A DNA stretch of 64,000 nt from Syntrophorhabdus sp. PtaB.Bin027 (GTDB lineage: Bacteria > Desulfobacterota > Syntrophorhabdia > Syntrophorhabdales > Syntrophorhabdaceae), in the NCBI GenBank assembly GCA_002067585.1, contig MVQO01000218.1, positions 3,455 through 67,454 on the forward strand. Reading direction: 5' to 3'. The notes under the pieces were generated by a model. The model worked only from the letters and a program-made list of their open reading frames with translations, searched no databases and had not been told where the DNA came from. A program made the translations under genes and the position numbers. This document shows, piece by piece, positions 8,226-54,449 of this stretch. How positions within the stretch are numbered: the stretch's first letter is position 1; the number at the start of each line of letters is the position of its first letter.

Positions 8226-10597
<2,372 letters not shown>

Positions 10598-13618: not shown

Positions 13619-13688
13619 GTTCTCTTTGCATCGTTCGAAAAAGGATCAGAGAACCATATCCTTGTTATGAGGCACTCCAGAGATATGG
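13618..13688. terminator. Paired inverted repeats in a convergent gap (possible terminator region)
   Basis: GGTTCTCT(13618-25)/AGAGAACC(13648-55) and CCATATC(13654-60)/GATATGG(13682-88). No clear U-tract. Confidence 0.25.
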
Positions 13689-13689
13689 A

Positions 13690-17212: not shown

Positions 17213-18928
17213 ATGCAACAAAAAATGAGTCTCGAAAAACTAAGGGTAAATCTTATTATTATTCTTATCCTCATCTCATCGGTCCCGCTGGTACTGTTCG
17301 CTATCGTGGTTTACAGGAAAGAGGCTGACCTCGTAAGGAAGAAAGTTCTATCCCACCTGAAAAGCATAGTTGCCCAGAATAGCCTTATGGTTGATGAATT
17401 CCGTCTGGAACGTATGCGCGATCTCAGCCTGCTGGCAGCAACCATCGAGGCACATGGCGGAGAATGCGACAGAATTCATCTTAAGCTTATGCACAAAGAC
17501 CGTACGATTTACAAACATATTTTTTTCGCTGATAAGGAGGGAAGAATCAGGTGTAAAACAGGTAAAGGACATCTATTTGAAAGGGGGCTTGTCAATCAGG
17601 CATGGTTTAAGGCTGCAGCAAAAGGAAAGCCTTTTATGGGAGAATTGACCTCTCGTGAAGGAAAAGACAGGTATGACCTCCTCCTCTCAGTCCCTGTGAG
17701 GATGGCTAACGGAACGACAATTGGTGTAGCAGGTGCTATTGTCGATTTTGATAATATCGCCAGTATTATGAAAAATACTGGTATAGGGCAGACAGGCGAG
17801 ATTTACATCCTGAACAAGGATGGGGTTTTTCTCACGTCAACACAAGTGGAGGAGGGCCGTTCAGGGGAGCGCATGGAGCCTGAGCTATTTGCAGGGTATT
17901 TCAAAGAGGTAGGGCCTAACGAGTATATCGACTATCGTGGTAAGAAGGTTGTACGGGTATTTAAAAAACTTTCAGATTCTAACTGGTATCTCGTTGGAGA
18001 ACAGGATGCAACAGAGGTCTTTAAGGACGTTGCAAACCTTAGAAACCTTTTTGCTGGCTTTGTAGTCCTTCTCATTGCCCTTATAACCCTTATAGGTTAT
18101 CTAATTTCAAGGAAAATTGTCCATCTGCTCAAATCCGCCTATGAGCAGAAGAAAGAATTGGAAATCCAGGTTATCCAAAAAGACAAGCTTGCCTCTATGG
18201 GACTACTGACTGCTGGAATCGCCCATGAGCTAAACACACCTCTTGCGAGCGCCCTTCTGTACACCCAGATGCTGAAAGAAGATGCCAGAAGCACATGGCC
18301 CGTGGCCCTGGAAAAACTTAGTTCAATTGAAGGAGAAATTAAAAGAGGAAGCAAAATTGTGAAGAATCTTCTCGACTTTTCAAGACAGTCCCAGACAGAT
18401 ACCGTGACAACAGATGTGAACGAGGTTCTCGGCAAACTCCTCGATATATCTGAGCAATTATGCTCTGACAGAGGCATTGAGATCAAACGAACCTTTGAAA
18501 AGAAGCTCCCCCTGGTAAAAGGTAACGCTAACATTCTTCACCAGGTTTTCATGAACATTGTTGCCAATGCTGTCGATGCCATGGAAAAAGGAGGCACTTT
18601 GAGCGTCCTCACCCGGCATATTGCTTCATTACACAAAACTGTTATAGAGATTCAGGATACTGGCACCGGAATTCCCGAAGAGCTGCTGGGCGATGTGTTC
18701 GACCCTTTTTTTACTACCAAACCCTCCGGGGAGGGAACTGGTTTGGGCCTTGCAATAAGCTATTCCATGGTGAGAAAAATGGGAGGCAACATCAGAGCGA
18801 CAAGCACCTGTGCTACTGAAAATAGCTATCCCTACCAGCCAACCGGAACAACCTTCACGATAGAGCTTCCGGCTTTAGATGATGACACACAAAGCACTGT
18901 AAAGGAAAGGATGGTAAAGACACAATGA
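17213..18928 (+). CDS. Membrane dCache-type sensor histidine kinase
   Basis: Two TM segments flank a periplasmic Cache-like domain; AGIAHELNTPL H-box; DTGTGI and GTGLGL boxes. Confidence 0.92.
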   Translation: MQQKMSLEKLRVNLIIILILISSVPLVLFAIVVYRKEADLVRKKVLSHLKSIVAQNSLMVDEFRLERMRDLSLLAATIEAHGGECDRIHLKLMHKDRTIYKHIFFADKEGRIRCKTGKGHLFERGLVNQAWFKAAAKGKPFMGELTSREGKDRYDLLLSVPVRMANGTTIGVAGAIVDFDNIASIMKNTGIGQTGEIYILNKDGVFLTSTQVEEGRSGERMEPELFAGYFKEVGPNEYIDYRGKKVVRVFKKLSDSNWYLVGEQDATEVFKDVANLRNLFAGFVVLLIALITLIGYLISRKIVHLLKSAYEQKKELEIQVIQKDKLASMGLLTAGIAHELNTPLASALLYTQMLKEDARSTWPVALEKLSSIEGEIKRGSKIVKNLLDFSRQSQTDTVTTDVNEVLGKLLDISEQLCSDRGIEIKRTFEKKLPLVKGNANILHQVFMNIVANAVDAMEKGGTLSVLTRHIASLHKTVIEIQDTGTGIPEELLGDVFDPFFTTKPSGEGTGLGLAISYSMVRKMGGNIRATSTCATENSYPYQPTGTTFTIELPALDDDTQSTVKERMVKTQ

Positions 18929-38329: not shown

Positions 38330-38776
38330 TCACTTAACCAATAGCACCTCACCCTTTGCGTGTTTCAGTACCCTGCTCGCCACATTTCCCATGAAGAAAG
38401 CCTTAATTGCCGAACGTCCGTGCGGAGATATGACAATAAGATCAGCACCTTTCTCTTCCTGTAGCTTTATAATCTCTTCGTAGGGAATTCCATTTCTTGC
38501 TTCGATGGAAACCTTTACCTCTTTGGATGATGGGAATTTGTCCAGTTGTTTTTGCATGTTTTCGGATGCCGCCTGAAACACCCTTTTTTTGAAAGCGTCA
38601 ATTTCATCCGCTGTAAAGCAATAGTCAACAACACAGGTCTGAAAATCTTCGTGTATTACATGAAAAAGAATAATCTCGGAGCCCTCTTCTTTGGCAATAT
38701 CGATCGCCTTCTCAAGTGCCCTATCTGCATGATCTGAGAAATCTGTTGGTACAAGTATTTTTTTAGGCTTAAACAT
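38330..38776 (-). CDS. Universal stress protein (tandem paralog)
   Basis: KKILVPTDFS..ADLIVISPHGRS..MGNVA; shares the CxVDYC motif with its neighbour. Confidence 0.93.
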   Translation of the reverse strand: MFKPKKILVPTDFSDHADRALEKAIDIAKEEGSEIILFHVIHEDFQTCVVDYCFTADEIDAFKKRVFQAASENMQKQLDKFPSSKEVKVSIEARNGIPYEEIIKLQEEKGADLIVISPHGRSAIKAFFMGNVASRVLKHAKGEVLLVK

Positions 38777-39704
38777 TGTACACCTCCTTGATGTAGTTGG
38801 ACTGCATTACCGCTGTTTTTTTTAACCTTGCATGACCCCTGATGTCAATAGTGGACTCCAAGAGAGGCAGAAACATACGTGCAGACGTTCCTTCCTCTTT
38901 TCTGCTTATTATTTTAAAGCAGCCTTTGTGGGCCTGCACAATTTGATTGACAAGTGTAAGGCCAAGCCCGTGACCAGTCCCTGTTGGTTTTGTTGTAAAG
39001 AAAGATTCAAAGATATGCGATTTCAGTTGGGGGTCTATCCCCTTGCCAGTGTCAACAACACTGAGTAATGCACATTCGACAATTTTATGTTGAGCTGAAT
39101 CAGGACTGTTCATTCTCACCTTTACCTTCCGCGTGACCAGAGCAATGGTTCCACCGAAAGGAAGGGCGTCCCTTCCATTCAAGATCAACTCTCCAACAGC
39201 CTGTTTTATAAATCTCATATCCCCCTTCATTGGCAAAGAATCTTCAGCTATATCAACTTGGATTGTAATATCATCTCGCATAATTGGAGAGATAAAAGGA
39301 ACGATACCCCTGAGAATGTCATTGAGATCAAAGTCTTCCATTTTCATGGGCATCTTTCCATTGAGAATCATGAGCGTGTAAACAAGATTTACACCACGGG
39401 CATGCGAATCCTGAATGCGACCGAGGTAAAACTGTTCCAGCGCCTTTTTTTCTATTTCTTCTTCAAGAACTGCCCCGTGCTGCATTACTGATTTGAAAGG
39501 CCCGACAGCTGGCAAAACCACCTGTTCAACAGCTCTTGATGTCTTTGGATCGCTGCTGAAACCATTTCTTTCATCCTGTTTTTTAGTCTGGATAATTCCT
39601 GCTCTATTCCACAGGCTGGCTAACGCCCAGTCAATAGAAACATTTGCATTGATAGAAACCACACGATGCCCCGTGCTGATTTCACTCCAAAAGCCTTTGG
39701 ACAT
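38769..39704 (-). CDS. Histidine-kinase-like ATPase protein lacking a recognisable H-box
   Basis: N box ELILNGRDA, G1 DTGKGI, F IFESFFTTK and G2 GHGLGL are intact; no HDFNN/HE.NNP motif. Confidence 0.8.
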   Translation of the reverse strand: MSKGFWSEISTGHRVVSINANVSIDWALASLWNRAGIIQTKKQDERNGFSSDPKTSRAVEQVVLPAVGPFKSVMQHGAVLEEEIEKKALEQFYLGRIQDSHARGVNLVYTLMILNGKMPMKMEDFDLNDILRGIVPFISPIMRDDITIQVDIAEDSLPMKGDMRFIKQAVGELILNGRDALPFGGTIALVTRKVKVRMNSPDSAQHKIVECALLSVVDTGKGIDPQLKSHIFESFFTTKPTGTGHGLGLTLVNQIVQAHKGCFKIISRKEEGTSARMFLPLLESTIDIRGHARLKKTAVMQSNYIKEVYNV

Positions 39705-39746
39705 GATTGCCTCCCCAAACTTAAGATTGACCTTGGTCTTTCTTTT

Positions 39747-39761
39747 TCAAGAATCGCGCCA
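39747..39761 (-). promoter_or_regulatory. Probable sigma-54 promoter (non-consensus -12)
   Basis: Minus strand TGGCGC-GATTC-TTGA; correct spacing but GA in place of GC. Confidence 0.5.
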
Positions 39762-39855
39762 CTCATGTGAGGTAGTTGAATTATTTTTTATTCCCCTGAT
39801 TACAGTGAGTTAGCATTTGTGGAATTGAGATTTGAAACATAATAACAGGAGAGTT

Positions 39856-39892
39856 GTCCTGAAAAACGAGACTAAGTCCTGCAGGACAAGAC
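39856..39892 (-). promoter_or_regulatory. Tandem 17-bp enhancer-like repeats
   Basis: GTCCTGAAAAACGAGAC (39856-72) and GTCCTGCAGGACAAGAC (39876-92); 20-bp period, just downstream of the activator gene. Confidence 0.55.
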
Positions 39893-39929
39893 ATGAACGC
39901 CACCGGGCCCTTTTTCAGCTAATATCTAT

Positions 39930-41345
39930 TTAAGGTTTCACCTTAATGAGTCTATGCTTTTTGAGTAGAGCATAAAGACGTGAACGTGACAATCCTGAAA
40001 TCCGACAGATCTCCTTGACATTGTTCTTCGTTCGGGCAATCAGTTCCACCAGATATTGCCGTTCAGCCTCATCGATGATATCCCCCCTGAATGAACTCAA
40101 CGTGGTAAATTCCTCGATCTTCCCTCCACCCGGAAGAACAGGCTCGACTGGTTTTTTCGTTTCTTTCAGGGCAGCATGGGCCAGCTTCACACGCAGGTAA
40201 GTCGGTAGATGTTTCGGATAAAGGGTCGGCTCATGGAGAGCACTGCAAACTGCAGTATCCATGGCATTGGCAAATTCTCTGACATTTCCTAACCATTCAT
40301 ACCCAGTAAGCGCGTCAAAGAATTCTGGTGTAACGCCTTTCATCGCAACCCCGTATCCTTCGCAGAACTTTCTAAGATAGTGTATCGTCAGCTCCTTGAT
40401 ATCTTCCTTTCTTTCTCGCAAGGGGGGAAGCTCTATTGTAAGAGCCTGAATTCTGAACAGGAGATCGGTTCTGAACTGACCGTTGGCAACCATCCTGTCA
40501 AGCTTTCTGTTGGTGGCTGCAATGAGCCTGAAATCGCTTTGTTCTTCCCCGCTGGAGCCGATAGGGCGAAACCTGTGTTCCTGCAAGACCCTCAAAAAAG
40601 ACTTTTGAATCAGAGGGGGTAACTCTCCAATCTCATCAAGAAAAAGCGTTCCCCTGTGCGCCAGCTTGATAAGGCCCTCCCGCGAACGATCCGCGCCTGT
40701 AAAAGCTCCTTTTTCATGGCCAAAAAGCGTGCTTTCAACGAGATTATCTGGCATGGCAGCACAATCCACCACGATGAAGCTTTTGTCTGCCCTTTGGCTG
40801 TTATCATGTATGGCACGAGCAAACAGTTCTTTTCCAGTTCCTGTCTCACCGGTTATAAGTACATTGATATCGCTCTGTGCTGCCTGGGCAACGAGATCAA
40901 AGCACGCCCTCAGTGAGGGGCTATTACCTATTATGTTGTCCTTTTTGAGGAGAACCGGTGGTTTTGTGGCAAGTCCCTTCTTCTCCCGGTACTGAATTGC
41001 CCGTGTCAGGACCAGCCTCATGGAGCTGAGGGAACAGGGTTTTTGGATAAAGTCCCACACACCGCTTTTCATGGCAAGCTCAGCACTGTCAGAATCTCCG
41101 TGTCCTGTGATAATGATGACCTCTGGCACAGAACTCATGTCCTTGATAAGGGGAAGAATATCCAGGCCATTCCCATCCGGGAGTCTAACATCCAAAAAAA
41201 TCACATCATAATCGTTAGCGAGGATCTTTTGCCGTGCATCTTTTAATGTAAATGATGATTCAGGGCGATGGCTCATCCTTGTCACCATTTCAACAAGCAT
41301 ATCAGACACATCACTGTCGTCATCGATGATCAGTATATCTGCCAT
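39930..41345 (-). CDS. sigma-54-dependent response regulator
   Basis: REC domain, GETGTGKE, GAFTGA, WLGNVRE, HTH. Confidence 0.95.
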   Translation of the reverse strand: MADILIIDDDSDVSDMLVEMVTRMSHRPESSFTLKDARQKILANDYDVIFLDVRLPDGNGLDILPLIKDMSSVPEVIIITGHGDSDSAELAMKSGVWDFIQKPCSLSSMRLVLTRAIQYREKKGLATKPPVLLKKDNIIGNSPSLRACFDLVAQAAQSDINVLITGETGTGKELFARAIHDNSQRADKSFIVVDCAAMPDNLVESTLFGHEKGAFTGADRSREGLIKLAHRGTLFLDEIGELPPLIQKSFLRVLQEHRFRPIGSSGEEQSDFRLIAATNRKLDRMVANGQFRTDLLFRIQALTIELPPLRERKEDIKELTIHYLRKFCEGYGVAMKGVTPEFFDALTGYEWLGNVREFANAMDTAVCSALHEPTLYPKHLPTYLRVKLAHAALKETKKPVEPVLPGGGKIEEFTTLSSFRGDIIDEAERQYLVELIARTKNNVKEICRISGLSRSRLYALLKKHRLIKVKP

Positions 41346-41357
41346 GGGCCACCCATA

Positions 41358-44300
41358 TTATACCCCTGTCGTCCCGTGAACTTCAGGATCCTTTCGGCTG
41401 TATTCTTCCTTATGCAGCACCCTCTGTATGGCATCCAAAAGTTCCTTTTTGGTAAGGGGCTTCATGAGGAATTCCTTGATACCTGCTTCTTTCATAATAT
41501 CTGTGGTTACAACGTCGCTGTGCCCTGTGCACAGTATGACGGGCATATCCGGCCTTATTTTGTAAATCTCCCTGGCGAGGTCGAGCCCGGTCATCCCAGG
41601 CATTGTCTGATCGGTAATCACAAGATCGAATCCTGATGGGTCAGATAGGAAGATCTCAAATGCCACAACACTGTTATCCAGAGCTGTCACTTCATACCCT
41701 ATTCGCTCCAGCTGCGCCTGCCCCCACTCAACAAGGAATTTCTCGTCATCTATAAACAAGACTCGCTCGCTGTTTCCAGGGGCCTGTTCAGAGGCGGTTT
41801 CCTCTGCTGATAAACCAGCTTCTGCCTTTGGAAAAAATATTGAAAAGGTTGAACCAACACCCGGCTCGCTTTCGGCTTCGATCTTCCCGTGAAGACTCTT
41901 CACGATCCCGTACACAACGGCAAGGCCCATTCCTGAGCCCTGGCCCACTTCCCTGGTCGTAAAGAAGGGATCGAATATCCTTTCCATAACATCAGGGGTC
42001 ATACCTGAGCCAGTATCGCTCACAACCACCCGCAGGTATTCCCCCGAGCCCATGTCAGGGTTGAGTATCGGGGAATCGGGCTCAATGTTAACATCAGTAA
42101 TGCTCACGTGAACCATCCCTCCTTTTTCGTTCATGGAAAGGGCAGCATTCGTTATAAGATTCATGAATACCTGCTGCACCTCAACCGGTGTGGCAAGGAT
42201 GGTATCAGAGACAGCGGCAATATCGAGCAGAATATCAATGGTGGTAGGAATTGAGGCTCGCAAGAGCTGTACCGTCTCCCTCGCCAGTGAGGCAACGGAC
42301 ACAGGTTTGCGGGCATGTTCTGTCTTCCGGGAAAACGCGAGGATCTGCTGAACCAGTTCCCGCCCCCTAGAAGCCGCACGAATCACCCTTTGAACGTGTT
42401 CAAGCTTTGGTCTGCCCTGAGGAATGTCCTCTTCAATCATTTCAGCAAACCCGATAATTGCTGCCAGGATATTATTAAAATCATGGGCAATCCCCCCTGC
42501 AAGGGTGCCGATTGCTTCCATCTTCTGAGAGTGACGCAGTTGATCTTCAAGATTTTTATATTCCGTAATATCCCTCAAGTAAGACAGTGACGCCGATTCT
42601 CCGAGATAGGTTGTTCTCACTGCTGAAACTTCAATGATTCGCAGGGTACCGTCTTTTTTTAGGCCTTTAAACTCATACCGGGCAGGAGCTGATTTACCCT
42701 CCTGTCTCGTTTTGTTGATTTCCAACACTCTGTTAAGGTCATCAGGGTGAACAGTGATTGACAGAGGTTTTCCAACAATCTCGCTGGGACCTTCATAGCC
42801 AAATATCTCTGCAAACCGTCTGTTGACGAATACGTGAAGGTCATGTACAACCAGAGCAATGCCGTCGGAGGCGCTTTCAATAGCGATTCGATATCTTTCT
42901 TCGCTTTCCCTTAGAGCCTGTTCTGCGTTTCTCAGGGCAGAAATATCCCTGGCCGCAGCAAAAACCCCTAGTACCTTCCTTGTTTCGTCTCTATACAACG
43001 TGGCATTGTAAAGTACAGGGGTAACATGTCCTGAACTGTGGCGAATCTCGAGTTCGTAGTCCCTCACCAGCCCTTCTTTGAACACCTGTTCATATCCGGC
43101 CTTGGCTCTTTCCGGGCTTGTGAAGTAATCAGAAAAATCAGTACCGATGAGCTGGAGTCTTGCACATCCGGTGACTTTCTCTGTGGCTTCATTGACATCC
43201 ATTATCCTCCCATCAGCGCTAATGGTTACAAGAGGATCGAGGCTCGCCTCAATAAGACTCCGATTGTATGCGTTTGCCAGCCGAACTTCCTCTTCAGCTC
43301 GCTTGCGATCAGTAATATCGATACCCATCTCCAGAATGAGCGTGGAACCGTCAGCATCTGTAAAGGGAAAATCGTGGATATCGTAAATATGACCGTCAGG
43401 GCCGGTCCACAGCCATCGTTGAGGTTCAATGGTCTTGAGGGTTTTGTAGGTTTCACAGCCTTCACAGGGGCCTGTGCGCCCGAAGAGATGATGAAAACAT
43501 TGCCTGTCCTCAGGATCCCCAAAAAGCTCCCGAAAAATGCGATTGGCGAATGGTATCCGGTAGTCCCGTGTTAACAAAACCACATAGGCAGGCAACGTTT
43601 CGAGGACACTGTAAAGCCGTTCCCGTTCCTCTTTCACCGCTTCTTCAACCTGTTTTCGAGAGGTAATATCCCGGTTTACTTCCATTATCTCCATTATCCC
43701 GTCGACCTCATTCTGCCGCAATATCCACTTGCTGTGTATCGTTGCCTTCCTCCCTTCCTTACAGGTGTGAATAAGTTCACCTTCCCAGCGTCCTTCGTGT
43801 TTAACGGTATTTATGATGTCTCTGATGGGAACCTGAGATTCTGTCTGTAACAGGTCATATATGTTACTACCAATAGATTCTTCCTGTGAAAATCCGTAAG
43901 TATTCTCGGCACCGGTGCTCCAAAAAATGATCTTTCCATCAATATCAGTCAGAATAATCGCATCCTGTGCCACATTAAGCAATTCTGCCTGTTGTTTGAG
44001 TTGAACAGTGCGCCTTGCTATCTGCAGCTCAAGTTCATCAGCCCGTTCTTTTTCTAGGCGGAGGAGGCGTATCCGGTCCATGGCAGTTGCTACCTGGTCT
44101 GCCACAATCTTCATAAGGGAAAGCTCATCTTCAGCAAAAGTCGAGCGGGACCGAGTGCCAAAAGAGAGGGTGCCAATAACCTGCTCCTGTACAAGAAGTG
44201 GATGACAGAAATAGGCGGTAATTCCCAAAGAGCGGATCAGGCCGGTTTGAATATCGGATGAGGCGGAAATATTCTCTGCCACTATCCGGCATGCATCCCT

Positions 44301-45632
44301 GGCTGCACACCCGCATACTGTTTCGCCATATTCGAGAAAATGTATGCTGTTGGCTATTTCCTCTTCAATGCCTGCATACGCATTAAGCCGTAAACACTTC
44401 ATCTCCTCATCCACAAGAAAGTTCAGGAAAACCTCGCAGTCAAGGTGCTCCATCACTCTGCGGCAGAGTGTTTCTACCATTTTCCGCGGTTCTGTACTGA
44501 AAAGGAGTTGATTTGCTGTTTCAGAAATGATATCGAGCCGTTCCATGCTTCGCAACAGTGCGCCTTCAGCCCGTTTCCGTTCATTAATTTCGTTCTGGAG
44601 TGATCGATTGATTACAGAAAGCTCTTCTGTTTTTTCTCTCTCTTCTCTCGTCGTGGTTCTCCTGACAAGCCAGGAAAAACCAAGCAACACGAAAAAAAAG
44701 ACAAGGGCAATCAGCGAGTAAACCTTGAGCCGCTCCCTCCATCCTTTCACAATAGGATCGAGAGGGGTTGTGGCCGCAACCACTAATGGCAACCTGTCAA
44801 TCTTCCTATACGCTATAAACCTTTTAATACCGCCTGTAGCTCGGGCTTCATACGATCCTGAAGGCTCTTTGTCAAAAGGAATGTTGAAGAGCTTGAGATG
44901 TTTGAAATCCTTTCCGAGAAATTCATCACTCATTGGCTGGCGCAGGATAAGGGCTCCATCGGTTCGAAAAACAATAACCGTACTTTCTTCGTCAAGTTCA
45001 ACGTTGCGCATGAAATTCGCAAAATCATCCGTATCTATAGCAGCAACAATGATGCCCAGAAAACGCCCATCCTTGCTTTCTAGCCTGCGGCTAATAGTGA
45101 AGCTGTATTTCCCCGTTATTCTACCCTTTACAACCGGTCCAATATAAAATCTGGTGCCCAGATCCCTGTGGGCAATAAAATATTCCCTTCCAGAGAAGTC
45201 TATTTGCGGTGAAGGATAAGACGTGGAATCCGACAAAAGACGAGCTTCGTGATCCAACAGCCAGAGAGATCCTGCATCTGAAAGGCCATCCGCAGCTGTT
45301 CGGAAACGCTCCCACTCTTGTTTTGATAAGATAATAGAACGAATGCCTTTTTCCTGGATTCGTATAGCGCGGCCATCCAGAGTCGCCTCAGCAGATATAA
45401 TGGTTCGTCTCACTCTTTCTTCAAGTGAGATGGCTGCTTTTTCAAGGCTAATTCTCGTTCGATCAAGGGTATTTTTGTAATCGGTTCTTGCTACAAACCA
45501 GAGAGTGAATGCATCTAAAAAAAACAAAAAAATAAGAATACTGCTGAGATAGAATTTAGAAGGGAATCTTCGTAATTTTGTGGTGCTCATCGAGGTGTTC
45601 CAGCTAACCGAAACAAAGCCAATTTTCCACAA
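41358..45632 (-). CDS. Hybrid sensor kinase (Cache-like, GAF, about 4 PAS, HisKA, HATPase, REC)
   Basis: Two TM segments, AHDFNN H-box, DTGSGM and GSGMGL boxes, C-terminal FIDDE/TDQTMP receiver. Probable start near 45590. Confidence 0.93.
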   Translation of the reverse strand: MWKIGFVSVSWNTSMSTTKLRRFPSKFYLSSILIFLFFLDAFTLWFVARTDYKNTLDRTRISLEKAAISLEERVRRTIISAEATLDGRAIRIQEKGIRSIILSKQEWERFRTAADGLSDAGSLWLLDHEARLLSDSTSYPSPQIDFSGREYFIAHRDLGTRFYIGPVVKGRITGKYSFTISRRLESKDGRFLGIIVAAIDTDDFANFMRNVELDEESTVIVFRTDGALILRQPMSDEFLGKDFKHLKLFNIPFDKEPSGSYEARATGGIKRFIAYRKIDRLPLVVAATTPLDPIVKGWRERLKVYSLIALVFFFVLLGFSWLVRRTTTREEREKTEELSVINRSLQNEINERKRAEGALLRSMERLDIISETANQLLFSTEPRKMVETLCRRVMEHLDCEVFLNFLVDEEMKCLRLNAYAGIEEEIANSIHFLEYGETVCGCAARDACRIVAENISASSDIQTGLIRSLGITAYFCHPLLVQEQVIGTLSFGTRSRSTFAEDELSLMKIVADQVATAMDRIRLLRLEKERADELELQIARRTVQLKQQAELLNVAQDAIILTDIDGKIIFWSTGAENTYGFSQEESIGSNIYDLLQTESQVPIRDIINTVKHEGRWEGELIHTCKEGRKATIHSKWILRQNEVDGIMEIMEVNRDITSRKQVEEAVKEERERLYSVLETLPAYVVLLTRDYRIPFANRIFRELFGDPEDRQCFHHLFGRTGPCEGCETYKTLKTIEPQRWLWTGPDGHIYDIHDFPFTDADGSTLILEMGIDITDRKRAEEEVRLANAYNRSLIEASLDPLVTISADGRIMDVNEATEKVTGCARLQLIGTDFSDYFTSPERAKAGYEQVFKEGLVRDYELEIRHSSGHVTPVLYNATLYRDETRKVLGVFAAARDISALRNAEQALRESEERYRIAIESASDGIALVVHDLHVFVNRRFAEIFGYEGPSEIVGKPLSITVHPDDLNRVLEINKTRQEGKSAPARYEFKGLKKDGTLRIIEVSAVRTTYLGESASLSYLRDITEYKNLEDQLRHSQKMEAIGTLAGGIAHDFNNILAAIIGFAEMIEEDIPQGRPKLEHVQRVIRAASRGRELVQQILAFSRKTEHARKPVSVASLARETVQLLRASIPTTIDILLDIAAVSDTILATPVEVQQVFMNLITNAALSMNEKGGMVHVSITDVNIEPDSPILNPDMGSGEYLRVVVSDTGSGMTPDVMERIFDPFFTTREVGQGSGMGLAVVYGIVKSLHGKIEAESEPGVGSTFSIFFPKAEAGLSAEETASEQAPGNSERVLFIDDEKFLVEWGQAQLERIGYEVTALDNSVVAFEIFLSDPSGFDLVITDQTMPGMTGLDLAREIYKIRPDMPVILCTGHSDVVTTDIMKEAGIKEFLMKPLTKKELLDAIQRVLHKEEYSRKDPEVHGTTGV

Positions 45633-45837: not shown

Positions 45838-46782
45838 TCAATTTCTGTTGAGGGCTTTAGCTCCATCAGGTCCTTTATGTGGCTGCCATAGACACAGGTT
45901 TGCCATATCTCCATTAAAGGCAGTCCTGGCTTTTTTCAGGACCCTCTGCTCGATCTGTCTGACACGCTCCCGGGATATACAGAACCTTGCCCCTATCTCT
46001 TCAAGCGTTTCCGGCTTATCTGCCATAATGCGGTTATCAAGTATGCATATCTCTTTCTCGTTCAGATTAATCTTCAACGCCTTAATTTTTTCATCCAGGA
46101 CTCTTTTCGATTCCTTTTCCATTACCACATACTCCACGTCCTCATCGGATGTGAGTAAATCCATAATCGTATCAACTCCATCGTCATTCACAGGAGAGTC
46201 AAGATATATGTCATTGTATGTTAATCGAATATTCATCTCTATTATGTCCTCCTCTTTTACTCCCAGGGAACGGGCAAGGGTGGCAGGGGCAGGGTTCAGC
46301 CCAAGATGCTCAAGTCTCCGTTTTTCCTTGTTCAATCGATAGAAAAGCCTCCTCTGGCCTTCGGTCGTTCCAATTTTTACAAGGCTCCATGAGCTCATTA
46401 TATACTGCAGGATATAAGCCCTTATCCAGAATTGCGCATATGTTGAGAATTTGGTTCCCTTGTGGGGATTGTATTTCTTTATGGCATGGAGAAGACCAAC
46501 ATTACCTTCCTGAATAAGATCGAGAATATTCTGATACGTGTTGTAGTAGCTCATAGCGATTTTAACCACAAGCCTGAGGTTAGAAACTGTCAGTTTCTCA
46601 ACCGCTCTGGGGTCATGGTTCTCGTAAACAAGCTGTGTAACCTCACGTTCTTCTTTCAGGGAAAGCACAGGATATTTTGATAGTTCCGAAAGATATGCAG
46701 TCAACGGGTCGCGCTTGACCGGCAGGCATTTTTTATGCTTCCTGTGTTCCGTACATTCTCCACAAACACAATGCCTTTCCAT
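45838..46782 (-). CDS. rpoH: RpoH (sigma-32)-like RNA polymerase sigma factor
   Basis: SNLRLVVKIA, DLIQEGNVGL, FSTYAQFWIRAYI, RpoH-box-like VKIGTTEGQRRLFYRL, SRERVRQIE; start reassigned to ATG 46782 (AGGAGG RBS). Confidence 0.85.
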   Translation of the reverse strand: MERHCVCGECTEHRKHKKCLPVKRDPLTAYLSELSKYPVLSLKEEREVTQLVYENHDPRAVEKLTVSNLRLVVKIAMSYYNTYQNILDLIQEGNVGLLHAIKKYNPHKGTKFSTYAQFWIRAYILQYIMSSWSLVKIGTTEGQRRLFYRLNKEKRRLEHLGLNPAPATLARSLGVKEEDIIEMNIRLTYNDIYLDSPVNDDGVDTIMDLLTSDEDVEYVVMEKESKRVLDEKIKALKINLNEKEICILDNRIMADKPETLEEIGARFCISRERVRQIEQRVLKKARTAFNGDMANLCLWQPHKGPDGAKALNRN

Positions 46783-46894
46783 TCTCCATCCCTCCTGATC
46801 AAAACTTGCATGGAATATTTTTCTCTCTATCAAAAATTGCGCCATACAATAAAACGGAATGTAAAAATTTGAGATTATCAATTATATCAATATA

Positions 46895-47995: not shown

Positions 47996-48526
47996 ATGGT
48001 AAAAGAGAGCATACCTTACCTTGCCTTCGTCGGTAGATCAAAGACTGGAAAAACTACTGTCATTGAAAAGCTTATCCCTGCCCTCCGTGAAAAAGGGTTT
48101 AAGATAGCGGTTATCAAACATCATCACCATGATTTCGATATTGATATACCGGGAAAAGATACATACCGTTATAAGCAGGCCGGTGCCTCTACAAGCATTA
48201 TTGCCTCACCCGGTAAAGTAGCGGTTGTTGAAGATACTGCGAGAGAACTCCCCCTTCATGAGATTATTACCAGGTATGTACATGATGATGTTGACCTCCT
48301 GCTCATAGAGGGCTTCAAGAAAGAAAACATCCCTAAGATTGAGGTATTCCGTCAAAAAGAAGATGGGACCACACCAGTGTGCACCGGAGATAAAAACCTT
48401 ATTGCCGTTGTTACTGATGAATCAGTGAAAACGTCTCTTCCCATCTTCACACGGAATGATGTTCAGGGGATTGCCGAGTTTATTGTAAACCGTTTTTTGC
48501 GACAAAAATCTTCTGGAGTTCCTTGA
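47996..48526 (+). CDS. mobB: Molybdopterin-guanine dinucleotide biosynthesis protein B
   Basis: GRSKTGKTT, IKHHHHDFDID.PGKDT, LIEGFK. Confidence 0.93.
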   Translation: MVKESIPYLAFVGRSKTGKTTVIEKLIPALREKGFKIAVIKHHHHDFDIDIPGKDTYRYKQAGASTSIIASPGKVAVVEDTARELPLHEIITRYVHDDVDLLLIEGFKKENIPKIEVFRQKEDGTTPVCTGDKNLIAVVTDESVKTSLPIFTRNDVQGIAEFIVNRFLRQKSSGVP

Positions 48527-49739
48527 CCAGAGCAATATTCTCAAGATGACCTGTTTGTTTTGCAGAGATTCTGCCTATAACGGGCCTGTTCAAGAGATAT
48601 ATATCACCGATAAGATCAAGCACCTTGTGCCTAACAAACTCATCAGGAAACCGCAATGTGGTGTTAACAACCTCTTCATCATTCAGAAGGATTACATTGT
48701 TAACCCGCCCGCCGGAACCGAGTCCCATCTTTGCAAGGCGTTCAAAATCCTTGATAAATCCGAAGGTTCTTGCAGGGGCAATATTCTGTAAAAAATCATC
48801 TCTGTTGCCTGCAAAGTGGTATGACTGCCGGCCGATCGGCATGGGATGTTCCAAGATATATTCAACCTCGAACCTTTTTGAGGGCTCGATAGACAGGTGA
48901 CGACCGTCACCAGGGTTGGAAAGAACAATTTTTGTGTCTATTTTGAGAGGCTCTACCCCTTCCTTTTGTTCAACAATTCCTGCTTTTTCAATATTATTAC
49001 ACATCTCAAGGGCTGAGCCATCAAATATGGGCACCTCTTCGCTTACCTTTACCAGGAGGTTGGTGATTCCGAACATATGGCACGTGGCCATAAGGTGCTC
49101 TATTGTGCGAACCTGGCAGTTCTTTCCTTTAACAGTAGATGCATATCCCACCGAGAACACATAGTCGATGTGTGCAGGGATTCGTTCACCATCAGGTATA
49201 TGTTCAAAAACAATCCCGGTGCCTTCTGGCATGGGCAGGAGAATCATGCCGGTCTTGACCCCCGAATGCAGGCCAACCCCGTACACAACGATACTTTCTC
49301 CAATAGTCTTTTGTTTGTAAACATCAGGGCCTTTTGAAATACCAACCTTTACGTCTTCGGCAACTTCTGTTTTTTGGTTTTCACCGGCAAGCCCTCGTGA
49401 AATCACTTCCAACACCTTATCAATGGATAGGGGCTTTTCAAGAAAATCGTATGCACCCATTTTTACGGCCTCAACTGCTGTCGAGATTGTCCCATGTCCT
49501 GATATGACAATTACAATGGCCTCTTTTTCTTTCTCTTTGATCATTTTGAGCACCTGAAGACCATCAAGTCCGGGCATCCAGATATCAAGGAGGACAATTT
49601 CAGGCCTGGCTGTATCGAAGAGTTCTAGTCCCTCCCTGCCTTCCCTGGCTGTAAAAACTTGAAATCCCTCATCCCTCAAGATGGAGGAAAGACTATCGAG
49701 AATTTGCTTTTCGTCGTCAATAATGAGAACCTTGTTCAT
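48480..49739 (-). CDS. lpxC: Response-regulator receiver fused to UDP-3-O-acyl-GlcNAc deacetylase (REC-LpxC)
   Basis: N-terminal IIDDE/LLDIWMP/SGHG/EKP receiver; C-terminal KQKTI..GVGLHSG, TIEH, PIFDGSA, ARTFGF, EFVRHKVLDLIGD, TGH. Start reassigned to ATG 49739. Confidence 0.93.
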   Translation of the reverse strand: MNKVLIIDDEKQILDSLSSILRDEGFQVFTAREGREGLELFDTARPEIVLLDIWMPGLDGLQVLKMIKEKEKEAIVIVISGHGTISTAVEAVKMGAYDFLEKPLSIDKVLEVISRGLAGENQKTEVAEDVKVGISKGPDVYKQKTIGESIVVYGVGLHSGVKTGMILLPMPEGTGIVFEHIPDGERIPAHIDYVFSVGYASTVKGKNCQVRTIEHLMATCHMFGITNLLVKVSEEVPIFDGSALEMCNNIEKAGIVEQKEGVEPLKIDTKIVLSNPGDGRHLSIEPSKRFEVEYILEHPMPIGRQSYHFAGNRDDFLQNIAPARTFGFIKDFERLAKMGLGSGGRVNNVILLNDEEVVNTTLRFPDEFVRHKVLDLIGDIYLLNRPVIGRISAKQTGHLENIALVKELQKIFVAKNGLQ

Positions 49740-49869
49740 AGAGGATATTTTACCTGAAAGCACTCTTATTTACAAATTTACAGGATTCATACCCTTATAG
49801 TGCAAATATCTTTTTTGTGCTATACTATGTTCACAAAGTTAAGGAACTTGGAGGTCAACAACATACTAA

Positions 49870-50871
49870 TTGGAAGAAAAAACTGAAGAAGGTTACCTGA
49901 GGTTATCCTTTGACGATACCAACGTAGCTCGAAACCTTTTTGGCCCACGCGACGAAAACATAAAATACCTGAAAAAATACTTCAATATCAGAACAAGCAT
50001 TCGTGGGAACCACCTTACCATCATGGGCAACAAAAAAGATATCGACAATACAAACAGAGTGATCAACGAACTCCAGGGAATTGTTCGAAAAGGCCTTGCC
50101 ATCAATCAGGCCGATATTGACCACGCTGTTAGATACCTTTCCCATACCAAGGGCGATATGGAGGAACTCCACAAAGACCAGATTTACATAATGCCCTCAA
50201 GGAAACTTATAGCACCAAAATCAAAAAACCAAAAGCGCTATCTTGATGCCATCAAAAAATATGACATGGTCATTGGCATCGGCCCTGCCGGTACAGGAAA
50301 GACCTACCTCGCCATGGCAATGGCCCTTTCATCGTATTTCAGGAAGGAGGTTTCACGCATTATTCTCACAAGGCCGGCAATAGAAGCCGGTGAGAAACTC
50401 GGATATCTTCCCGGGACCATGTATGAAAAGGTGAATCCCTACCTACGACCTCTTCATGACGCTCTTTTCGACATGGTAGACATGGATAGAGCAACCCGGC
50501 TTATTGAAAAAGGTGTAATTGAAATCGCCCCTCTGGCATTTATGCGTGGCCGCACACTTAACGACGCCTTTGTAATTCTTGATGAAGCACAAAATACAGC
50601 CTCGGAACAGATGAAAATGTTTCTCACGAGGCTCGGGTTCTCTTCGAAGACCGTCATAACCGGCGATATTACCCAGATTGATCTACCTGACAAAAAAACG
50701 AGCGGCCTTGTTGAGATTCAAGCGGTGTTAAAAGGTGTCAAAGGCATCCGATTTGTTTACTTTTCAGAGAAAGATGTGGTAAGACATCCGCTTGTCCAGA
50801 AGATCATTCGGGCGTATGAATCCCGGAAGGCTGTCCTGGAGGATATAAAAAATGCTGAGCGAAAAAGCTAA
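49870..50871 (+). CDS. phoH: PhoH-family ATPase/RNA helicase
   Basis: GPAGTGKT, LTRPAIEAGEKLGYLPG, APLAFMRGRTL, DEAQN; TTG start. Confidence 0.95.
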   Translation: MEEKTEEGYLRLSFDDTNVARNLFGPRDENIKYLKKYFNIRTSIRGNHLTIMGNKKDIDNTNRVINELQGIVRKGLAINQADIDHAVRYLSHTKGDMEELHKDQIYIMPSRKLIAPKSKNQKRYLDAIKKYDMVIGIGPAGTGKTYLAMAMALSSYFRKEVSRIILTRPAIEAGEKLGYLPGTMYEKVNPYLRPLHDALFDMVDMDRATRLIEKGVIEIAPLAFMRGRTLNDAFVILDEAQNTASEQMKMFLTRLGFSSKTVITGDITQIDLPDKKTSGLVEIQAVLKGVKGIRFVYFSEKDVVRHPLVQKIIRAYESRKAVLEDIKNAERKS

Positions 50872-52558
50872 ACCTCCCTCGTACCTGAATTATCGCAGGC
50901 TTCTTGTCATTTTTTTTCTCTCCCTCCTCCTATCAATAGTATGCAGCACCAAAGATCCCTTTAAGTTGTCAGAATATCAGTATGGGGATATTGCTAAGAA
51001 GAATATAAAATCACCTGCTGATGTTTACCTTCCAGACAAAGACACCACCTTGAAGAAGGGAGAGATTATTGTCAGAGAAGGTGACAGAATTACTGACGAA
51101 CATCTTCAAAAACTCTCCCGGATAGAGGTCAGGGAAAGTACTGCGGCTTTCTCTGTAAAAAACCTGGTTCTGATCTTTCTTCTCCTTTTCTTTTCTCTTA
51201 CCCTCATATACGAATACGCAGATAAGAATATAAAGAAATTTACCCTTACAGAAAAAGACCTGAACTTTGCAGCTATCTTCACCTCTTTCATGGCACTTCT
51301 TGTGAAGGCTTCCACGTTGATTTTTGAACATTTTGCACCCGGTGCTGCCCCTTATCTTCTCTATATTATTCCCATATTCTGTTATGGCATCATACTGAGG
51401 ATAGTCCTGTTCTCTGAAGCGGCCATTATATTTTCCATACTCTTCTCGATCGTCATGGGCATCTTGTTTGAGAATAGCCTTCCAATCTTTCTTTATACAC
51501 TTCTAGGTAATATCCTTGCATCTTACTATTCTGGGAAGTGCGAAAACAGAAACACGGTTCTTAAAGCCGGTCTCTATACAGCTTTTATCATGTCTCTTAT
51601 TGTTATTCTTTTTGACTCTCTTCAGGGAACCTCACCCTCAAACATCCCCCTGAAGATGGCATTTATTATTGTTAACGGCGTAGGCAGCAGCTTTATAGCA
51701 CTGGGCCTTCTTCCTGTCATAGAACACATTTTTAATTACACCACGGACATCAAGCTCCTTGAGCTGGCAAACCTGGAACATCCACTCCTTGAAGAGATGA
51801 TGGTAAATGCGCCTGGAACGCATCACCACAGTATAGTTATCGGGAATCTTGCAAAGGCTGCAGCTGAAAGTATTGGTGCCCATCCACTTCTAGCAAGGGT
51901 ATCCGCGTATTACCATGACATCGGCAAACTAAAAATGCCTCACTATTTTATCGAGAACCGGGTGGGTAACGATGATGCCCACAGGGGACTCACCCCTAAC
52001 ATGAGCGCGCTGATTATCCTTTCCCACGTCAAAGAAGGGATTGAAATGGCACGGCAGTACAGACTTGGAAAAAAGATAACCGATATGATTGGTCAGCACC
52101 ATGGCACAAGCCTTGTCACATATTTTTATAACCGTGCGAAAGAACTTGAAGACCCAAGGATGCATGTGACTGAGGAAAAAGATTTCAGATATGCCGGGCC
52201 CAAACCTCAAACAAAAGAGGCAGGCATCATCATGCTGGCAGACTCTGTTGAAGCGTCATCACGCCTTCTCGACGATCCAACACCAAAAAGAATCGAAACA
52301 CACGTCCAGGAAGTCATTGAAAAAATATTTCTCGACGGGCAGCTTGACGAGTGTGAACTAACCCTCAAAGACCTCCACGCCATTCAGAAAAGTTTCATTG
52401 CTATTCTCATTGGTATATTTCATCACAGGATTGAATATCCAGAAAGGACCCTTCATGAAGGTACTGATAAGAGAGTCACCAAAGTTTCTGGGAACGGACA
52501 AAAGAACGGTCAGAAAGATAATCGAAAATTTACTAGCATCTTTAAAGCTACCGGATAG
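50852..52558 (+). CDS. 7TM-HD phosphohydrolase (PgpH-like)
   Basis: TM array; APGTHHHS, YYHDIGK, QHHGT, IMLADSVEA. Confidence 0.9.
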   Translation: MLSEKAKPPSYLNYRRLLVIFFLSLLLSIVCSTKDPFKLSEYQYGDIAKKNIKSPADVYLPDKDTTLKKGEIIVREGDRITDEHLQKLSRIEVRESTAAFSVKNLVLIFLLLFFSLTLIYEYADKNIKKFTLTEKDLNFAAIFTSFMALLVKASTLIFEHFAPGAAPYLLYIIPIFCYGIILRIVLFSEAAIIFSILFSIVMGILFENSLPIFLYTLLGNILASYYSGKCENRNTVLKAGLYTAFIMSLIVILFDSLQGTSPSNIPLKMAFIIVNGVGSSFIALGLLPVIEHIFNYTTDIKLLELANLEHPLLEEMMVNAPGTHHHSIVIGNLAKAAAESIGAHPLLARVSAYYHDIGKLKMPHYFIENRVGNDDAHRGLTPNMSALIILSHVKEGIEMARQYRLGKKITDMIGQHHGTSLVTYFYNRAKELEDPRMHVTEEKDFRYAGPKPQTKEAGIIMLADSVEASSRLLDDPTPKRIETHVQEVIEKIFLDGQLDECELTLKDLHAIQKSFIAILIGIFHHRIEYPERTLHEGTDKRVTKVSGNGQKNGQKDNRKFTSIFKATG

Positions 52559-52910
52559 GGACCTCAGTATCCTCTTTGTGGATAATAAAAAAATAAGACA
52601 ACTGAATAAACAATATTTTCATAAAGACTACCCTACAAATGTTATATCTTTTTCCTATATGGATGGGCTGACTTCTGAAGTAATAGGTGATATTGTAATC
52701 TCTATTGAAAGGACCCGCGAAGAAGCGGAATCTCTGTCAGTCCCTTTTTATGAAAGGCTTTTTACCCTCATTATACACGGGTTGGTTCATATTCTTGGCT
52801 ACGACCATACAGGAGACAAAAACCAGGCGAGGAGAATGCGCTATCGTGAAAAGAAGCTCCTCAATTTCATCATCTCCCACTCTCTGTATCAAAAATTAAT
52901 ATGTAGGTAG
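52455..52910 (+). CDS. ybeY: rRNA maturation endoribonuclease YbeY
   Basis: PTNVISF, GDIVIS, HGLVHILGYDH; start ATG 52455 after GAAAGGA. Confidence 0.92.
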   Translation: MKVLIRESPKFLGTDKRTVRKIIENLLASLKLPDRDLSILFVDNKKIRQLNKQYFHKDYPTNVISFSYMDGLTSEVIGDIVISIERTREEAESLSVPFYERLFTLIIHGLVHILGYDHTGDKNQARRMRYREKKLLNFIISHSLYQKLICR

Positions 52911-52913
52911 CTT

Positions 52914-54449
52914 ATGAGATTTTTTGATTTTTTTCATTCTAATGCCCGAAGTCTGAACTTCTCCGGGCAAATAGGGTTGCCTGTGCTCAGCGGAATTCTT
53001 CTCATTGTATGCCAACCCCCGGTCTCCCTGTTTCCTTTTGCCTTCATAGCATTGATCCCCCTGCTTTATGCTATGGCAAAATATCCATACCGTCATCCTT
53101 TCCTTCCCGGTTTTATCACAGGAATTGTTGCATATCTTGGCCTTATTTATTGGGTTATTGTTGCAATGAACACCTATGGGGGTATCGATATCTTCACCAG
53201 CACGCTTATACTGTTGTTGTTTGTTCTATATCTTTCCCTGTACCTGGGTTGCTTTACGACAGCAGTTTTTATACTTGAAAAAAAGATGTCAGTTCCTGTT
53301 TATCTATCTGTGCCCATTGTGTGGACACTTCTGGAGTACCTCAGGGGCGTTGCCCTCACAGGCTTTCCGTGGAGCTTCCTTGGCCACTCCCAGCACAACT
53401 TCCTCATCTTTATTCAAATTGCGTCTATTACCGGCACTTACTTCATATCTTTTCTCATTGCCGCTATAAATTGCATCGTTTTCTTTGTGGCACTCAAGAA
53501 ACCAATTTCAAAGATCTATTTAACAGTGATACTCGTCATAGTAACAGCTTCTGTTGCTTTTGGATTTATTAGAGTCAATGAGCCACAAGATGCAAAGTTA
53601 ACCGCTGCTATTGTCCAGGGAAACATCAGGCAAGACGTCAAATGGGATGATAATTTCAAGATTAAAACCATTCAGATATATTCCGAAAACACAATCAGAA
53701 AAGGCAACAATGTGGATTTCGTAATCTGGCCTGAGACTGCCCTACCTCTTATCTTTAACGAAGAAACGTACGTCAATCAATACATCAAAACATTGCCCTC
53801 TATGGTGAATTCACATCTTCTTTTCGGCACAATCTGGAAAGACCAGAGAGGAAAAGTATACAATTCAGCCTATGTCATTGGAAAAAATGGTGATGTAAAC
53901 GGTATTTACAATAAAGCGCACCTCGTCCCATTCGGTGAGTATACCCCGTTAGTCCGCTACCTCCCCTTTCTTGAGAAAATCACTGCCCAGGGTGCAGGTT
54001 TTGCTTCCGGCAATGGCCATGACCCTGTAATAACCCCCTCTGGCAAAGTAGGGATTCTTATCTGTTACGAAGGTGTCTTCCCCTATATCACAAATGCAAC
54101 AGTGGCAAGAGGGGCCCAGTTTCTCGTAAACCTGACAAATGATGCATGGTATGAAAAAACCTCAGCGGCTTTCCAACACTTGGCCTTCTATGTCTTCCGG
54201 GCTGTTGAAACCGACAGATATATTCTTCGTGCAGCGAATACAGGCATAAGCGCCATCATCGACCCAAGAGGGCGCATCACAGCCAGAACGCCTATTTTCG
54301 AAGAACAGGTTTTGAAAGGAAATTTCTCACTCAGGGACAGCATGACCTCATACATCGTATATGGTGATTACTTCATACTTATTTTATTCCTTTCTCTGCT
54401 GACCATCATAACTGTTCAATTCATTCGAAGGAACAAAAAACAAAGATAA
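52914..54449 (+). CDS. lnt: Apolipoprotein N-acyltransferase
   Basis: IWPETA, KAHLVPFGEY, ICYE, TNDAWY, RAANTGISA. Confidence 0.95.
   Translation: MRFFDFFHSNARSLNFSGQIGLPVLSGILLIVCQPPVSLFPFAFIALIPLLYAMAKYPYRHPFLPGFITGIVAYLGLIYWVIVAMNTYGGIDIFTSTLILLLFVLYLSLYLGCFTTAVFILEKKMSVPVYLSVPIVWTLLEYLRGVALTGFPWSFLGHSQHNFLIFIQIASITGTYFISFLIAAINCIVFFVALKKPISKIYLTVILVIVTASVAFGFIRVNEPQDAKLTAAIVQGNIRQDVKWDDNFKIKTIQIYSENTIRKGNNVDFVIWPETALPLIFNEETYVNQYIKTLPSMVNSHLLFGTIWKDQRGKVYNSAYVIGKNGDVNGIYNKAHLVPFGEYTPLVRYLPFLEKITAQGAGFASGNGHDPVITPSGKVGILICYEGVFPYITNATVARGAQFLVNLTNDAWYEKTSAAFQHLAFYVFRAVETDRYILRAANTGISAIIDPRGRITARTPIFEEQVLKGNFSLRDSMTSYIVYGDYFILILFLSLLTIITVQFIRRNKKQR

Follow-up and report, generated by a model that had tools for sequence, protein, structure and literature searches.

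LpxC catalyses the first step committed to making lipid A; it is the control point of lipopolysaccharide (LPS) synthesis and a major antibiotic target, and in Escherichia coli it is controlled by FtsH/LapB/YejM proteolysis. To our knowledge, every characterised control of LpxC acts via proteolysis or transcription. The C-terminal end of E. coli LpxC is needed for its degradation by FtsH, as stated in a title cited in PMC3333781. The lpxC gene is the single target of the Desulfovibrio vulgaris response regulator DVU2934, and in S. fumaroxidans lpxC lies directly upstream of the operon of the orthologous regulator (PMC3333781). In R. sphaeroides without NtrYX, lpxC mRNA rises 8.8-fold and LPS is raised (PMC7240162), and in both R. 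sphaeroides and Caulobacter NtrYX has links to the cell envelope and to the expression of lpxC (PMC7240162, PMC12444477). Here we describe a gene, REC-lpxC, in which a response-regulator receiver domain (REC) is fused to a complete LpxC. It lies in a 64,000-nt stretch of Syntrophorhabdus sp. PtaB.Bin027 (MVQO01000218.1, positions 3,455-67,454; assembly GCA_002067585.1), hereafter the window, to which all unprefixed coordinates refer. The receiver very probably derives from an NtrX-like regulator that became fused to LpxC.

The open reading frame is uninterrupted, and its product begins at an ATG with MNKVLIIDDE. An alternative in-frame GTG at 49763 would add 8 residues; homologues begin at the ATG. 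The features of the locus are as follows.

48480..49739, minus strand: REC-LpxC fusion, whole coding sequence (419 amino acids plus stop), from the open reading frame list, the sequence, Pfam and the identical protein in independent assemblies
49386..49739, minus strand: REC domain, residues 1-118, NtrX-type (PF00072, NCBIfam ranking, conservation, structure prediction)
49713-49718, 49584-49586, 49500-49502 and 49434-49436, minus strand: REC residues D8/D9, phospho-acceptor D52, S80 and K102, in that order; W54 is invariant
49320..49385, minus strand: linker, residues 119-140 (GENQKTEVAEDVKVGISKGPDV), variable and predicted to be flexible (structure-prediction confidence, low conservation)
48510..49319, minus strand: LpxC deacetylase domain, residues 141-410 (PF03331, TIGR00325, Aquifex alignment, structure prediction)
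49095-49100, 48765-48767, 48603-48629 and 48546-48548, minus strand: LpxC residues E214/H215, T325, H371-D379 (HKVLDLIGD) and H398, in that order
48480..48509, minus strand: C-terminal tail IFVAKNGLQ plus stop, short and unconserved (open reading frame map, conservation), overlapping the 3' end of mobB
49740..49869, no strand: divergent intergenic region between REC-lpxC and phoH, 130 bp (promoter scans)

By every sequence and fold test applied, the product is a member of both the LpxC family and the receiver-domain family. The Pfam model Response_reg (PF00072) matched residues 4-113 (E 2e-30, 105.6 bits) and LpxC (PF03331) matched residues 143-409, covering model positions 1-267 of 268 (E 9e-79, 265 bits against a cutoff of 27). 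The lpxC equivalog TIGR00325 scored 221 bits against a cutoff of 187. All of the expected receiver residues are there (D8, D9, D52 in LLDIWMP, S80 and K102), as are the zinc ligands (H215, H371 and D375) and the catalytic residues (E214, H398, T325, K372 and D379) of LpxC, the motifs being TIEH (E214/H215), HKVLDLIGD (H371/K372/D375/D379) and TGH (H398). These residues align to those of Aquifex aeolicus LpxC, the nearest solved structure (E 3e-47), and the LpxC domain is predicted to be catalytically competent. An earlier note, made from the sequence by eye, had described a single uninterrupted frame with canonical receiver residues (DD, the D of LLDIWMP, S and K), a short linker and a full LpxC carrying TIEH, HKVLD and TGH, flanked by mobB and phoH, and each of these elements was recovered, with mobB convergent and phoH divergent. 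The note had also proposed looking for a chimera or a missing stop between the domains; we found neither.

The predicted structure agrees with the domain assignments. An AlphaFold2 model built on 88 homologues had a mean predicted local distance difference test score (pLDDT) of 87.7 and a predicted template modelling score (pTM) of 0.86 for the two-domain chain, the latter hinting at a fixed interface between REC and LpxC. The receiver adopts a (beta/alpha)5 fold, with pLDDT mostly 81-95 and dropping to 76-84 at residues 101-118. In the linker, residues 120-129 are below 50, and the 10-residue blocks over 121-140 average 42 and 59. The modelled LpxC domain superimposes on Aquifex LpxC with a template modelling (TM) score of 0.93-0.95 and a root-mean-square deviation of 1.4-2.0 A, and for the E. 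coli LpxC of the LapB complex 8V24 the TM score of the model is 0.84, normalised to the target. No PDB chain spanning both REC and LpxC was found among the sequence or structure matches.

Several lines of evidence establish that the fusion is authentic. Independent Logan/ENA assemblies contain a 419-aa protein that is 100% identical, and over 100 orthologues at 69-92% identity come from independent Syntrophorhabdaceae assemblies, some on contigs of 0.35-5.5 Mb; the fusion is therefore not a chimera. The best 120 database matches (69-100% identity) were all two-domain proteins of 411-425 aa, except for one 354-aa entry, and the names on the closest ones were Syntrophorhabdus and Syntrophorhabdaceae (Thermodesulfobacteriota, class Syntrophorhabdia). 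Across 118 close orthologues, REC and LpxC had majority-residue fractions of 0.84 and 0.83, compared with 0.52 and 0.18 in the linker and the 9-residue tail. More broadly, 295-296 of 296 fused proteins retain the LpxC catalytic residues, and at least 285 of 287 fused-protein receivers retain D8, D9, D52, S80 and K102, with W54 invariant. Given this retention and the equal constraint on the two domains, the pattern is unexpected for a vestigial receiver. The databases label these proteins simply as LpxC or NtrX.

The fusion is widespread. A search of 1.84 billion cluster representatives, followed by domain scans, placed it in at least six phyla and in three size forms. The predictions of the earlier note that could be checked were all borne out, including a fusion that is real and conserved; its attribution of the fusion to 'this lineage' proved too narrow. 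The short form is REC-LpxC alone (about 412-430 aa), the intermediate form (440-510 aa) in some cases carries a Fis-type helix-turn-helix (HTH) between REC and LpxC, and the long form (650-773 aa) comprises REC, a sigma-54-type AAA+ module, an AAA lid, often a Fis-type HTH, and LpxC. Clustering at 50% gave at least 14 REC-AAA+-LpxC clusters of 650-736 aa and about 25 short or intermediate ones, and the best 120 matches to one long form all had the long architecture. Long forms carry names from Nitrospinota/Nitrospina/Nitromaritima, Candidatus Schekmanbacteria, Candidatus Tectomicrobia and some Thermodesulfobacteriota, with a length of about 730 aa; intermediate forms were found in Nitrospinota, and short forms outside Syntrophorhabdaceae in Candidatus Binatia and one Spirochaetota genome. 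In alignments, the window protein has its linker where the long forms have their AAA+ and HTH modules. On a Nitrospinota-like 3.25-Mb contig (L002), the long NtrX-like-LpxC gene is surrounded by envelope genes, namely lolA and those for an RseP-type M50 protease, an RlpA-like SPOR protein and LpoB (12418-15100; 708-8670); no kinase was found near the long fusion at this locus.

Both the window receiver and the long forms resemble NtrX more than other response regulators. Among NCBIfam response-regulator models, NtrX ranked best for the window receiver (133 bits; next model 102), with RssB at 98 bits, under the NtrX, PgtA and AtoC models. The 133 bits for the NtrX model (NF051870) come from the REC part only and compare with an equivalog cutoff of 600, so the window protein is below membership. 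Similarly, it scored 197 bits against a cutoff of 465 for the LpxC-FabZ model NF009667 and is not a member. Pfam detected no AAA+ or HTH in the window protein, which places it outside the sigma-54 enhancer-binding class. It is thus neither NtrX proper nor a sigma-54 activator, as the parts that define these are absent. For the N-terminal 450 residues of the long forms, the NtrX model was again best, matching over its full length at 245-344 bits, above NtrC and AtoC and below the 600 cutoff, and the JGI label for many of them is 'NtrX'. Aligned to a genuine sigma-54 activator encoded in the same window (39930-41345), the long forms retain the receiver, the LRERxEDI/lid region, mostly Walker A and in many cases the HTH. 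The GAFTGA loop is lost in all of them, and the Walker B Glu, sensor I and Arg fingers in most. Because GAFTGA and the ATPase motifs are gone, the long forms would no longer be able to act as sigma-54 activators. Alphaproteobacterial NtrX, too, is not known to carry GAFTGA.

Gene linkage points to a kinase class. On two Binatia-like contigs (L009 and L010), a 756-771-aa kinase ends 22-27 bp upstream of a short fusion, and in Schekmanbacteria (L011) a 745-aa kinase ends 10 bp upstream of a long fusion. All three have the architecture NtrY_N-HAMP-PAS-HisKA-HATPase, with Pfam NtrY_N at 23.6-30.5 bits against a cutoff of 23.2. On a 2.1-Mb contig from an unclassified metagenome-assembled genome (MAG) with a long fusion (L013), a kinase of this type is immediately upstream, its match stopping about 55 bp short of the match to REC. 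Over their full length, the NtrY-type kinases share 33-43% identity with each other and with one kinase from the unfused clusters described below; no NtrY model was among the NCBIfam matches listed for the kinases, which were topped by AtoS and LIC_11548. NtrY is the likely kinase class for the window receiver, judging from these relatives. The receiver had been called an 'orphan' in the earlier note, which remains apt in that no kinase is linked to it in the window, yet its origin can be assigned as NtrX-type and its relatives lie behind NtrY-type kinases. The note's further statement that no cognate kinase is adjacent was right for directly adjacent genes, and needs qualifying in that a 1424-aa hybrid histidine kinase is encoded 2.8 kb away on the same strand (41358-45632), a position not conserved beside the gene.

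This hybrid kinase and a dCache kinase (17213-18928) were considered as partners and rejected: neither adjoins the gene in L001, L004/5 or L006, and their NtrY likeness is generic to the kinase core. An NtrC-type activator orthologue (57-63% identity) occurs within 10 kb of the fusion in three Syntrophorhabdia loci, including L001 and L006; its REC is only about 31% identical to that of the fusion, and we took this loose linkage as residual synteny rather than a meaningful partnership. The related Syntrophorhabdia loci showed no conserved adjacent kinase, and NtrY-type pairing was not encountered in the window or in L001, L004 and L006. In the window, the hybrid kinase (dCache-GAF-PAS x3-HisKA-HATPase-REC) belongs to a signalling run downstream of REC-lpxC on the minus strand (38769-45632) that also encodes the NtrC-type activator (39930-41345) and a 311-aa HATPase_c protein, with a gene for a sigma-70-family factor just upstream (45838-46881).

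A scan of the genome collection, which matched mostly ordinary lpxC genes and constitutes a haphazard sample whose counts are lower bounds, revealed a related arrangement without fusion. In at least six loci, an unfused lpxC shares its strand with genes for an NtrY-type kinase (701-753 aa) and a response regulator (453-456 aa), and in some of them also with a DUF4390 gene. These loci come from Thermoanaerobaculia (L015, L041), Rokuibacteriota (L017, L062), Candidatus Acidoferrum (L040) and a deltaproteobacterial MAG (L044). Their receivers are 47-53% identical to that of the window and have the common signature DIWMPG...SGHG...GAYDF(I/L)EKPLS. The two full-length regulators scanned (L044, L062) scored 239-246 bits for Sigma54_activat, and GAFTGA and Walker A/B are intact in 4 of 4 regulators read. 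In all six clusters, a sigma-54 motif, TGGCA(C/A/T)-N5-(T/C/G)TGC, lies 20-70 nt upstream of lpxC; four of these match at 10 of 11 positions and are the sole such matches in 104,946 positions scanned. The motifs are at the following places.

L015:3978, L017:3890, L040:3963, L041:3962, L044:3937 and L062:3962: sigma-54 motifs of the TGGCAC-N5-TTGC type

No such motif was found upstream of the fused genes in the same scan, and a search for the sigma-54 motif GG-N10-GC gave no match in the 130-bp intergenic region upstream of REC-lpxC in the window. The motifs before unfused lpxC imply sigma-54/NtrX-like control of lpxC transcription in these phyla, among them Acidobacteriota and Rokuibacteriota, and the clusters fit with both the DVU2934-lpxC link (PMC3333781) and the R. 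sphaeroides ntrYX deletion (PMC7240162). The unfused lpxC-ntrY-ntrX clusters are the probable pre-fusion state. Between lpxC and the kinase, two of the loci have a small gene (L040:5014-5601 and L017:4973-5602) whose product has a signal-peptide-like N-terminus, and which in L040 matches DUF4390 with 56.9 bits; this protein may be a periplasmic partner of the kinase.

To trace how the size forms relate, we built a tree from the LpxC domains of 118 taxa, a sample biased to top hits, by neighbour joining with 200 bootstraps. Fused LpxC domains separated from those unfused domains that were sampled (79.5% support), and the Syntrophorhabdia short forms made a 100% clade. Two intermediate or short forms were 100%-supported sisters of long forms (P0138/P0137 and P0133/P0144). 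In pairwise alignments, P0137 corresponds to P0138 without the AAA+ module and with a nearly unchanged HTH; P0144 corresponds to P0133 without AAA+ and HTH; and P0126 is a P0127-like protein minus AAA+. These clean deletions in sister pairs indicate that long-to-short reduction happened repeatedly. A few apparently unfused sequences were nested inside the fused group. One of these, P0167, was rejected as an unfused close relative, as only fused proteins are among its nearest relatives and frameshifts abound on its contig. On that contig (L008, 4818-6879), ruvB and the upstream kinase gene are fragmented and a 430-bp uncalled gap lies at the expected receiver. L008 is probably a frameshift-rich long-read assembly, which calls for caution over 'unfused' assignments in this family. 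P0189 is another full-length 'unfused' sequence nested among fused ones, and the remainder resemble gene fragments.

Collectively, these results suggest a history in four steps. An NtrY/NtrX-like system would have activated lpxC transcription from a sigma-54 promoter, an arrangement that would survive in the lpxC-ntrY-ntrX clusters; the regulator gene would then have fused in frame to lpxC, giving REC-AAA+-HTH-LpxC behind ntrY; the sigma-54 and ATPase functions of the fused regulator would have decayed; and AAA+ and then HTH would have been deleted, more than once, to leave REC-linker-LpxC. In the resulting protein, an NtrY-type sensor kinase encoded elsewhere in the genome would phosphorylate D52, and a change at the alpha4-beta5-alpha5 face of REC and in its dimerisation state would alter LpxC output. 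The receiver might pack on the catalytic domain in the manner of CheB, with phosphorylation relieving or imposing inhibition by shifting this packing or driving dimerisation; alternatively, phosphorylation might alter protein half-life. The effect could be either activation or inhibition. In either case, an envelope or redox signal would govern lipid A flux post-translationally, taking the part that FtsH/LapB proteolysis plays in E. coli. That an NtrY-type pathway exerts phospho-control over LpxC function seems to us reasonably probable. More tentative is the full proposal, plausible as we find it, of a captured circuit: an NtrY/NtrX-like sigma-54 system that fused to its target LpxC, lost ATPase, sigma-54 and DNA-binding functions stepwise, and now acts as a direct phospho-switch that, instead of FtsH/LapB, would chiefly govern how much LPS is made in Nitrospinota, Binatia, Syntrophorhabdia and allied phyla.

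Several observations weigh against this account. The neighbour-joining tree fails to place the Syntrophorhabdia clade inside the fused clade (support of 0.2 or less), and certain divergent short forms split off close to the base of the fused clade. Because of these two features, a long form as the starting point, which is evident at three tips of the tree, can be suggested only indirectly for the lineage of the window. Gene order also differs, with lpxC upstream of ntrY in the unfused clusters and downstream of ntrX in the fused genes, so that fusion would have needed a rearrangement. Finally, no NtrY orthologue was found in the 64-kb window, where only generic kinase-core matches occurred, nor within 10 kb of the gene in four Syntrophorhabdia loci, a Nitrospinota-like locus and a Thermodesulfobacteriota locus.

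Other explanations of the fused gene must also be considered. The receiver could set turnover rather than catalysis, with phosphorylation exposing or hiding a degradation signal or recruiting a protease, amounting to two-component-triggered proteolysis. Control of E. coli LpxC does act on protein level via FtsH degradation (PMC3333781, PMC12444477). The E. coli-type conserved C-terminal degron extension was not found in the window protein, in which only 9 unconserved residues follow the LpxC domain, so another degradation handle would presumably be needed, and the 98-bit RssB match might be read as a sign of one, except that it is probably generic to receivers and ranks below NtrX, PgtA and AtoC. 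The pTM of 0.86 suggests fixed packing of REC on LpxC, which is more typical of allosteric or steric control, and neither the window nor the related Syntrophorhabdia loci have a conserved protease or adaptor gene nearby. We regard turnover control as unlikely. Quite unlikely, in our estimate, is that the fused gene is an accessory, condition-specific paralogue, with a canonical unfused lpxC elsewhere doing the housekeeping. The genome is visible over 64 kb only, which leaves room for such a copy, and there is no second lpxC within that span. Against it stand a TIGR00325 score above the cutoff, catalytic residues kept in 295-296 of 296 proteins and the grouping of fused LpxC by lineage (the 100% Syntrophorhabdia clade), this last being as expected of a vertically inherited core gene. 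In addition, the sole nested full-length 'unfused' sequence with its locus examined, P0167, is a frameshift artefact (P0189 being the other full-length one), and the rest are fragment-like.

The two remaining explanations deny the receiver a signalling role or the gene its reality. Decay and loss of the neighbouring AAA+ and HTH modules, together with the lack of a linked kinase in the window lineage, would be compatible with a receiver that is an evolutionary leftover serving as a non-signalling appendage for folding or solubility. Such a leftover is highly improbable given the near-complete retention of D8, D9, D52, S80 and K102 (at least 285 of 287) with an invariant W54, a REC conservation of 0.84 against 0.83 for LpxC, and Binatia short forms that still lie directly behind an NtrY-type kinase. 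To an assembly chimera, or a missed stop between two genes, we give practically no credence: the frame is continuous, independent assemblies contain the identical protein, and the architecture recurs in hundreds of orthologues on contigs of up to 5.5 Mb. Phospho-control through an NtrX-derived receiver remains the reading that we favour.

The native context of REC-lpxC is mostly kept in related Syntrophorhabdia loci. On one side, mobB (47996-48526) is convergent with it and followed by NUDIX genes, and the 3' ends of mobB and REC-lpxC overlap by 47 bp (48480-48526), with no terminator-like hairpin found between them. The mobB-NUDIX pair is kept 3' of the fusion in Syntrophorhabdia loci, L001 being an exception with the NUDIX gene only. 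On the other side is a divergent cluster of phoH, a 7TM-HD (PgpH-like) gene, ybeY and lnt (49870-54449, plus strand), which is kept in L001 and L006; lnt encodes apolipoprotein N-acyltransferase and is thus another envelope-biogenesis enzyme gene neighbouring lpxC. As the listed ybeY frame (52398-52910) shares 161 bp with the 7TM-HD gene, the real start of ybeY probably lies further on. Scans for sigma-70-like promoters and terminators around REC-lpxC returned matches no commoner than in shuffled sequence. Elsewhere in the window, an NrpR-like regulator gene (NRD1_2 plus HTH_12; 8226-10573, minus strand) lies directly downstream of a glutamate dehydrogenase gene, NrpR being best known as an archaeal nitrogen repressor. 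A 1480-aa flavin/iron-sulfur oxidoreductase (1697-6139, minus strand) combines several Pyr_redox_2/NAD_binding_8 modules, Fer4_20 and a C-terminal 4Fe-4S dicluster.

Searches of the full-text literature yielded neither a description of LpxC fused to a receiver or to NtrX nor a characterised LpxC-output response regulator, in line with the earlier note, whose author had been aware of no characterised example. A 2025 review, 'The regulation of lipid A biosynthesis', treats NtrYX only as a transcriptional regulator, and neither 'response regulator' nor 'fusion' occurs in its text. If our reading is correct, LpxC would here for the first time be seen under direct two-component control, and the novelty would be twofold: an enzymatic output not seen before in a response regulator, and a new mode of control for LpxC. 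The fusion would also serve as a 'Rosetta stone' linking NtrYX-type systems to lipid A synthesis, supporting and helping to explain the envelope phenotypes of alphaproteobacterial ntrYX mutants and the DVU2934-lpxC link in Desulfovibrio. The putative intermediates on the way from a transcription factor to an allosteric module all still exist in living lineages, and the protein offers a convenient test system, with one polypeptide, one aspartate and a candidate kinase class. In current annotation, the labels 'LpxC' and 'NtrX' hide the fusion.

Of the systems described, NtrY/NtrX is close in sequence: the window receiver and the long-form modules match the NtrX model best, Brucella NtrX (5M7N/O/P) is among the PDB matches, and the kinases of relatives and of unfused clusters have the NtrY architecture NtrY_N-HAMP-PAS-HisKA-HATPase. 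NtrX, however, is a free DNA-binding regulator, whereas the window protein is without AAA+ and HTH, has an attached enzyme as its output, scores 133 bits (245-344 in the long forms) against a cutoff of 600, and has no linked ntrY in the window. The DVU2934-lpxC pair resembles our case in that a two-component regulator of the same phylum targets lpxC and in that the S. fumaroxidans gene order recalls the lpxC-ntrY-ntrX clusters; it differs in being transcriptional control through separate proteins, and the likeness is one of gene order and target. E. coli LpxC under FtsH/LapB/YejM control is the same enzyme at the same regulated step. It has no receiver domain and, judging by the title mentioned above, relies on its C-terminal end, in place of which the window protein has a tail of 9 unconserved residues. 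LpxC-FabZ is likewise a natural LpxC fusion, and the LpxC part of the window protein matches its model, NF009667; there, however, the partner is a pathway enzyme at the C-terminus, and here it is a signalling domain at the N-terminus. In layout, there is a parallel in CheB, one of the response regulators with enzyme outputs, with an N-terminal receiver, a flexible linker and a C-terminal hydrolase in both, although the catalytic domains are unrelated and CheB has a dedicated kinase, CheA. The CheB receiver blocks the active site until it is phosphorylated, and this provides the working model for how REC may act on LpxC.

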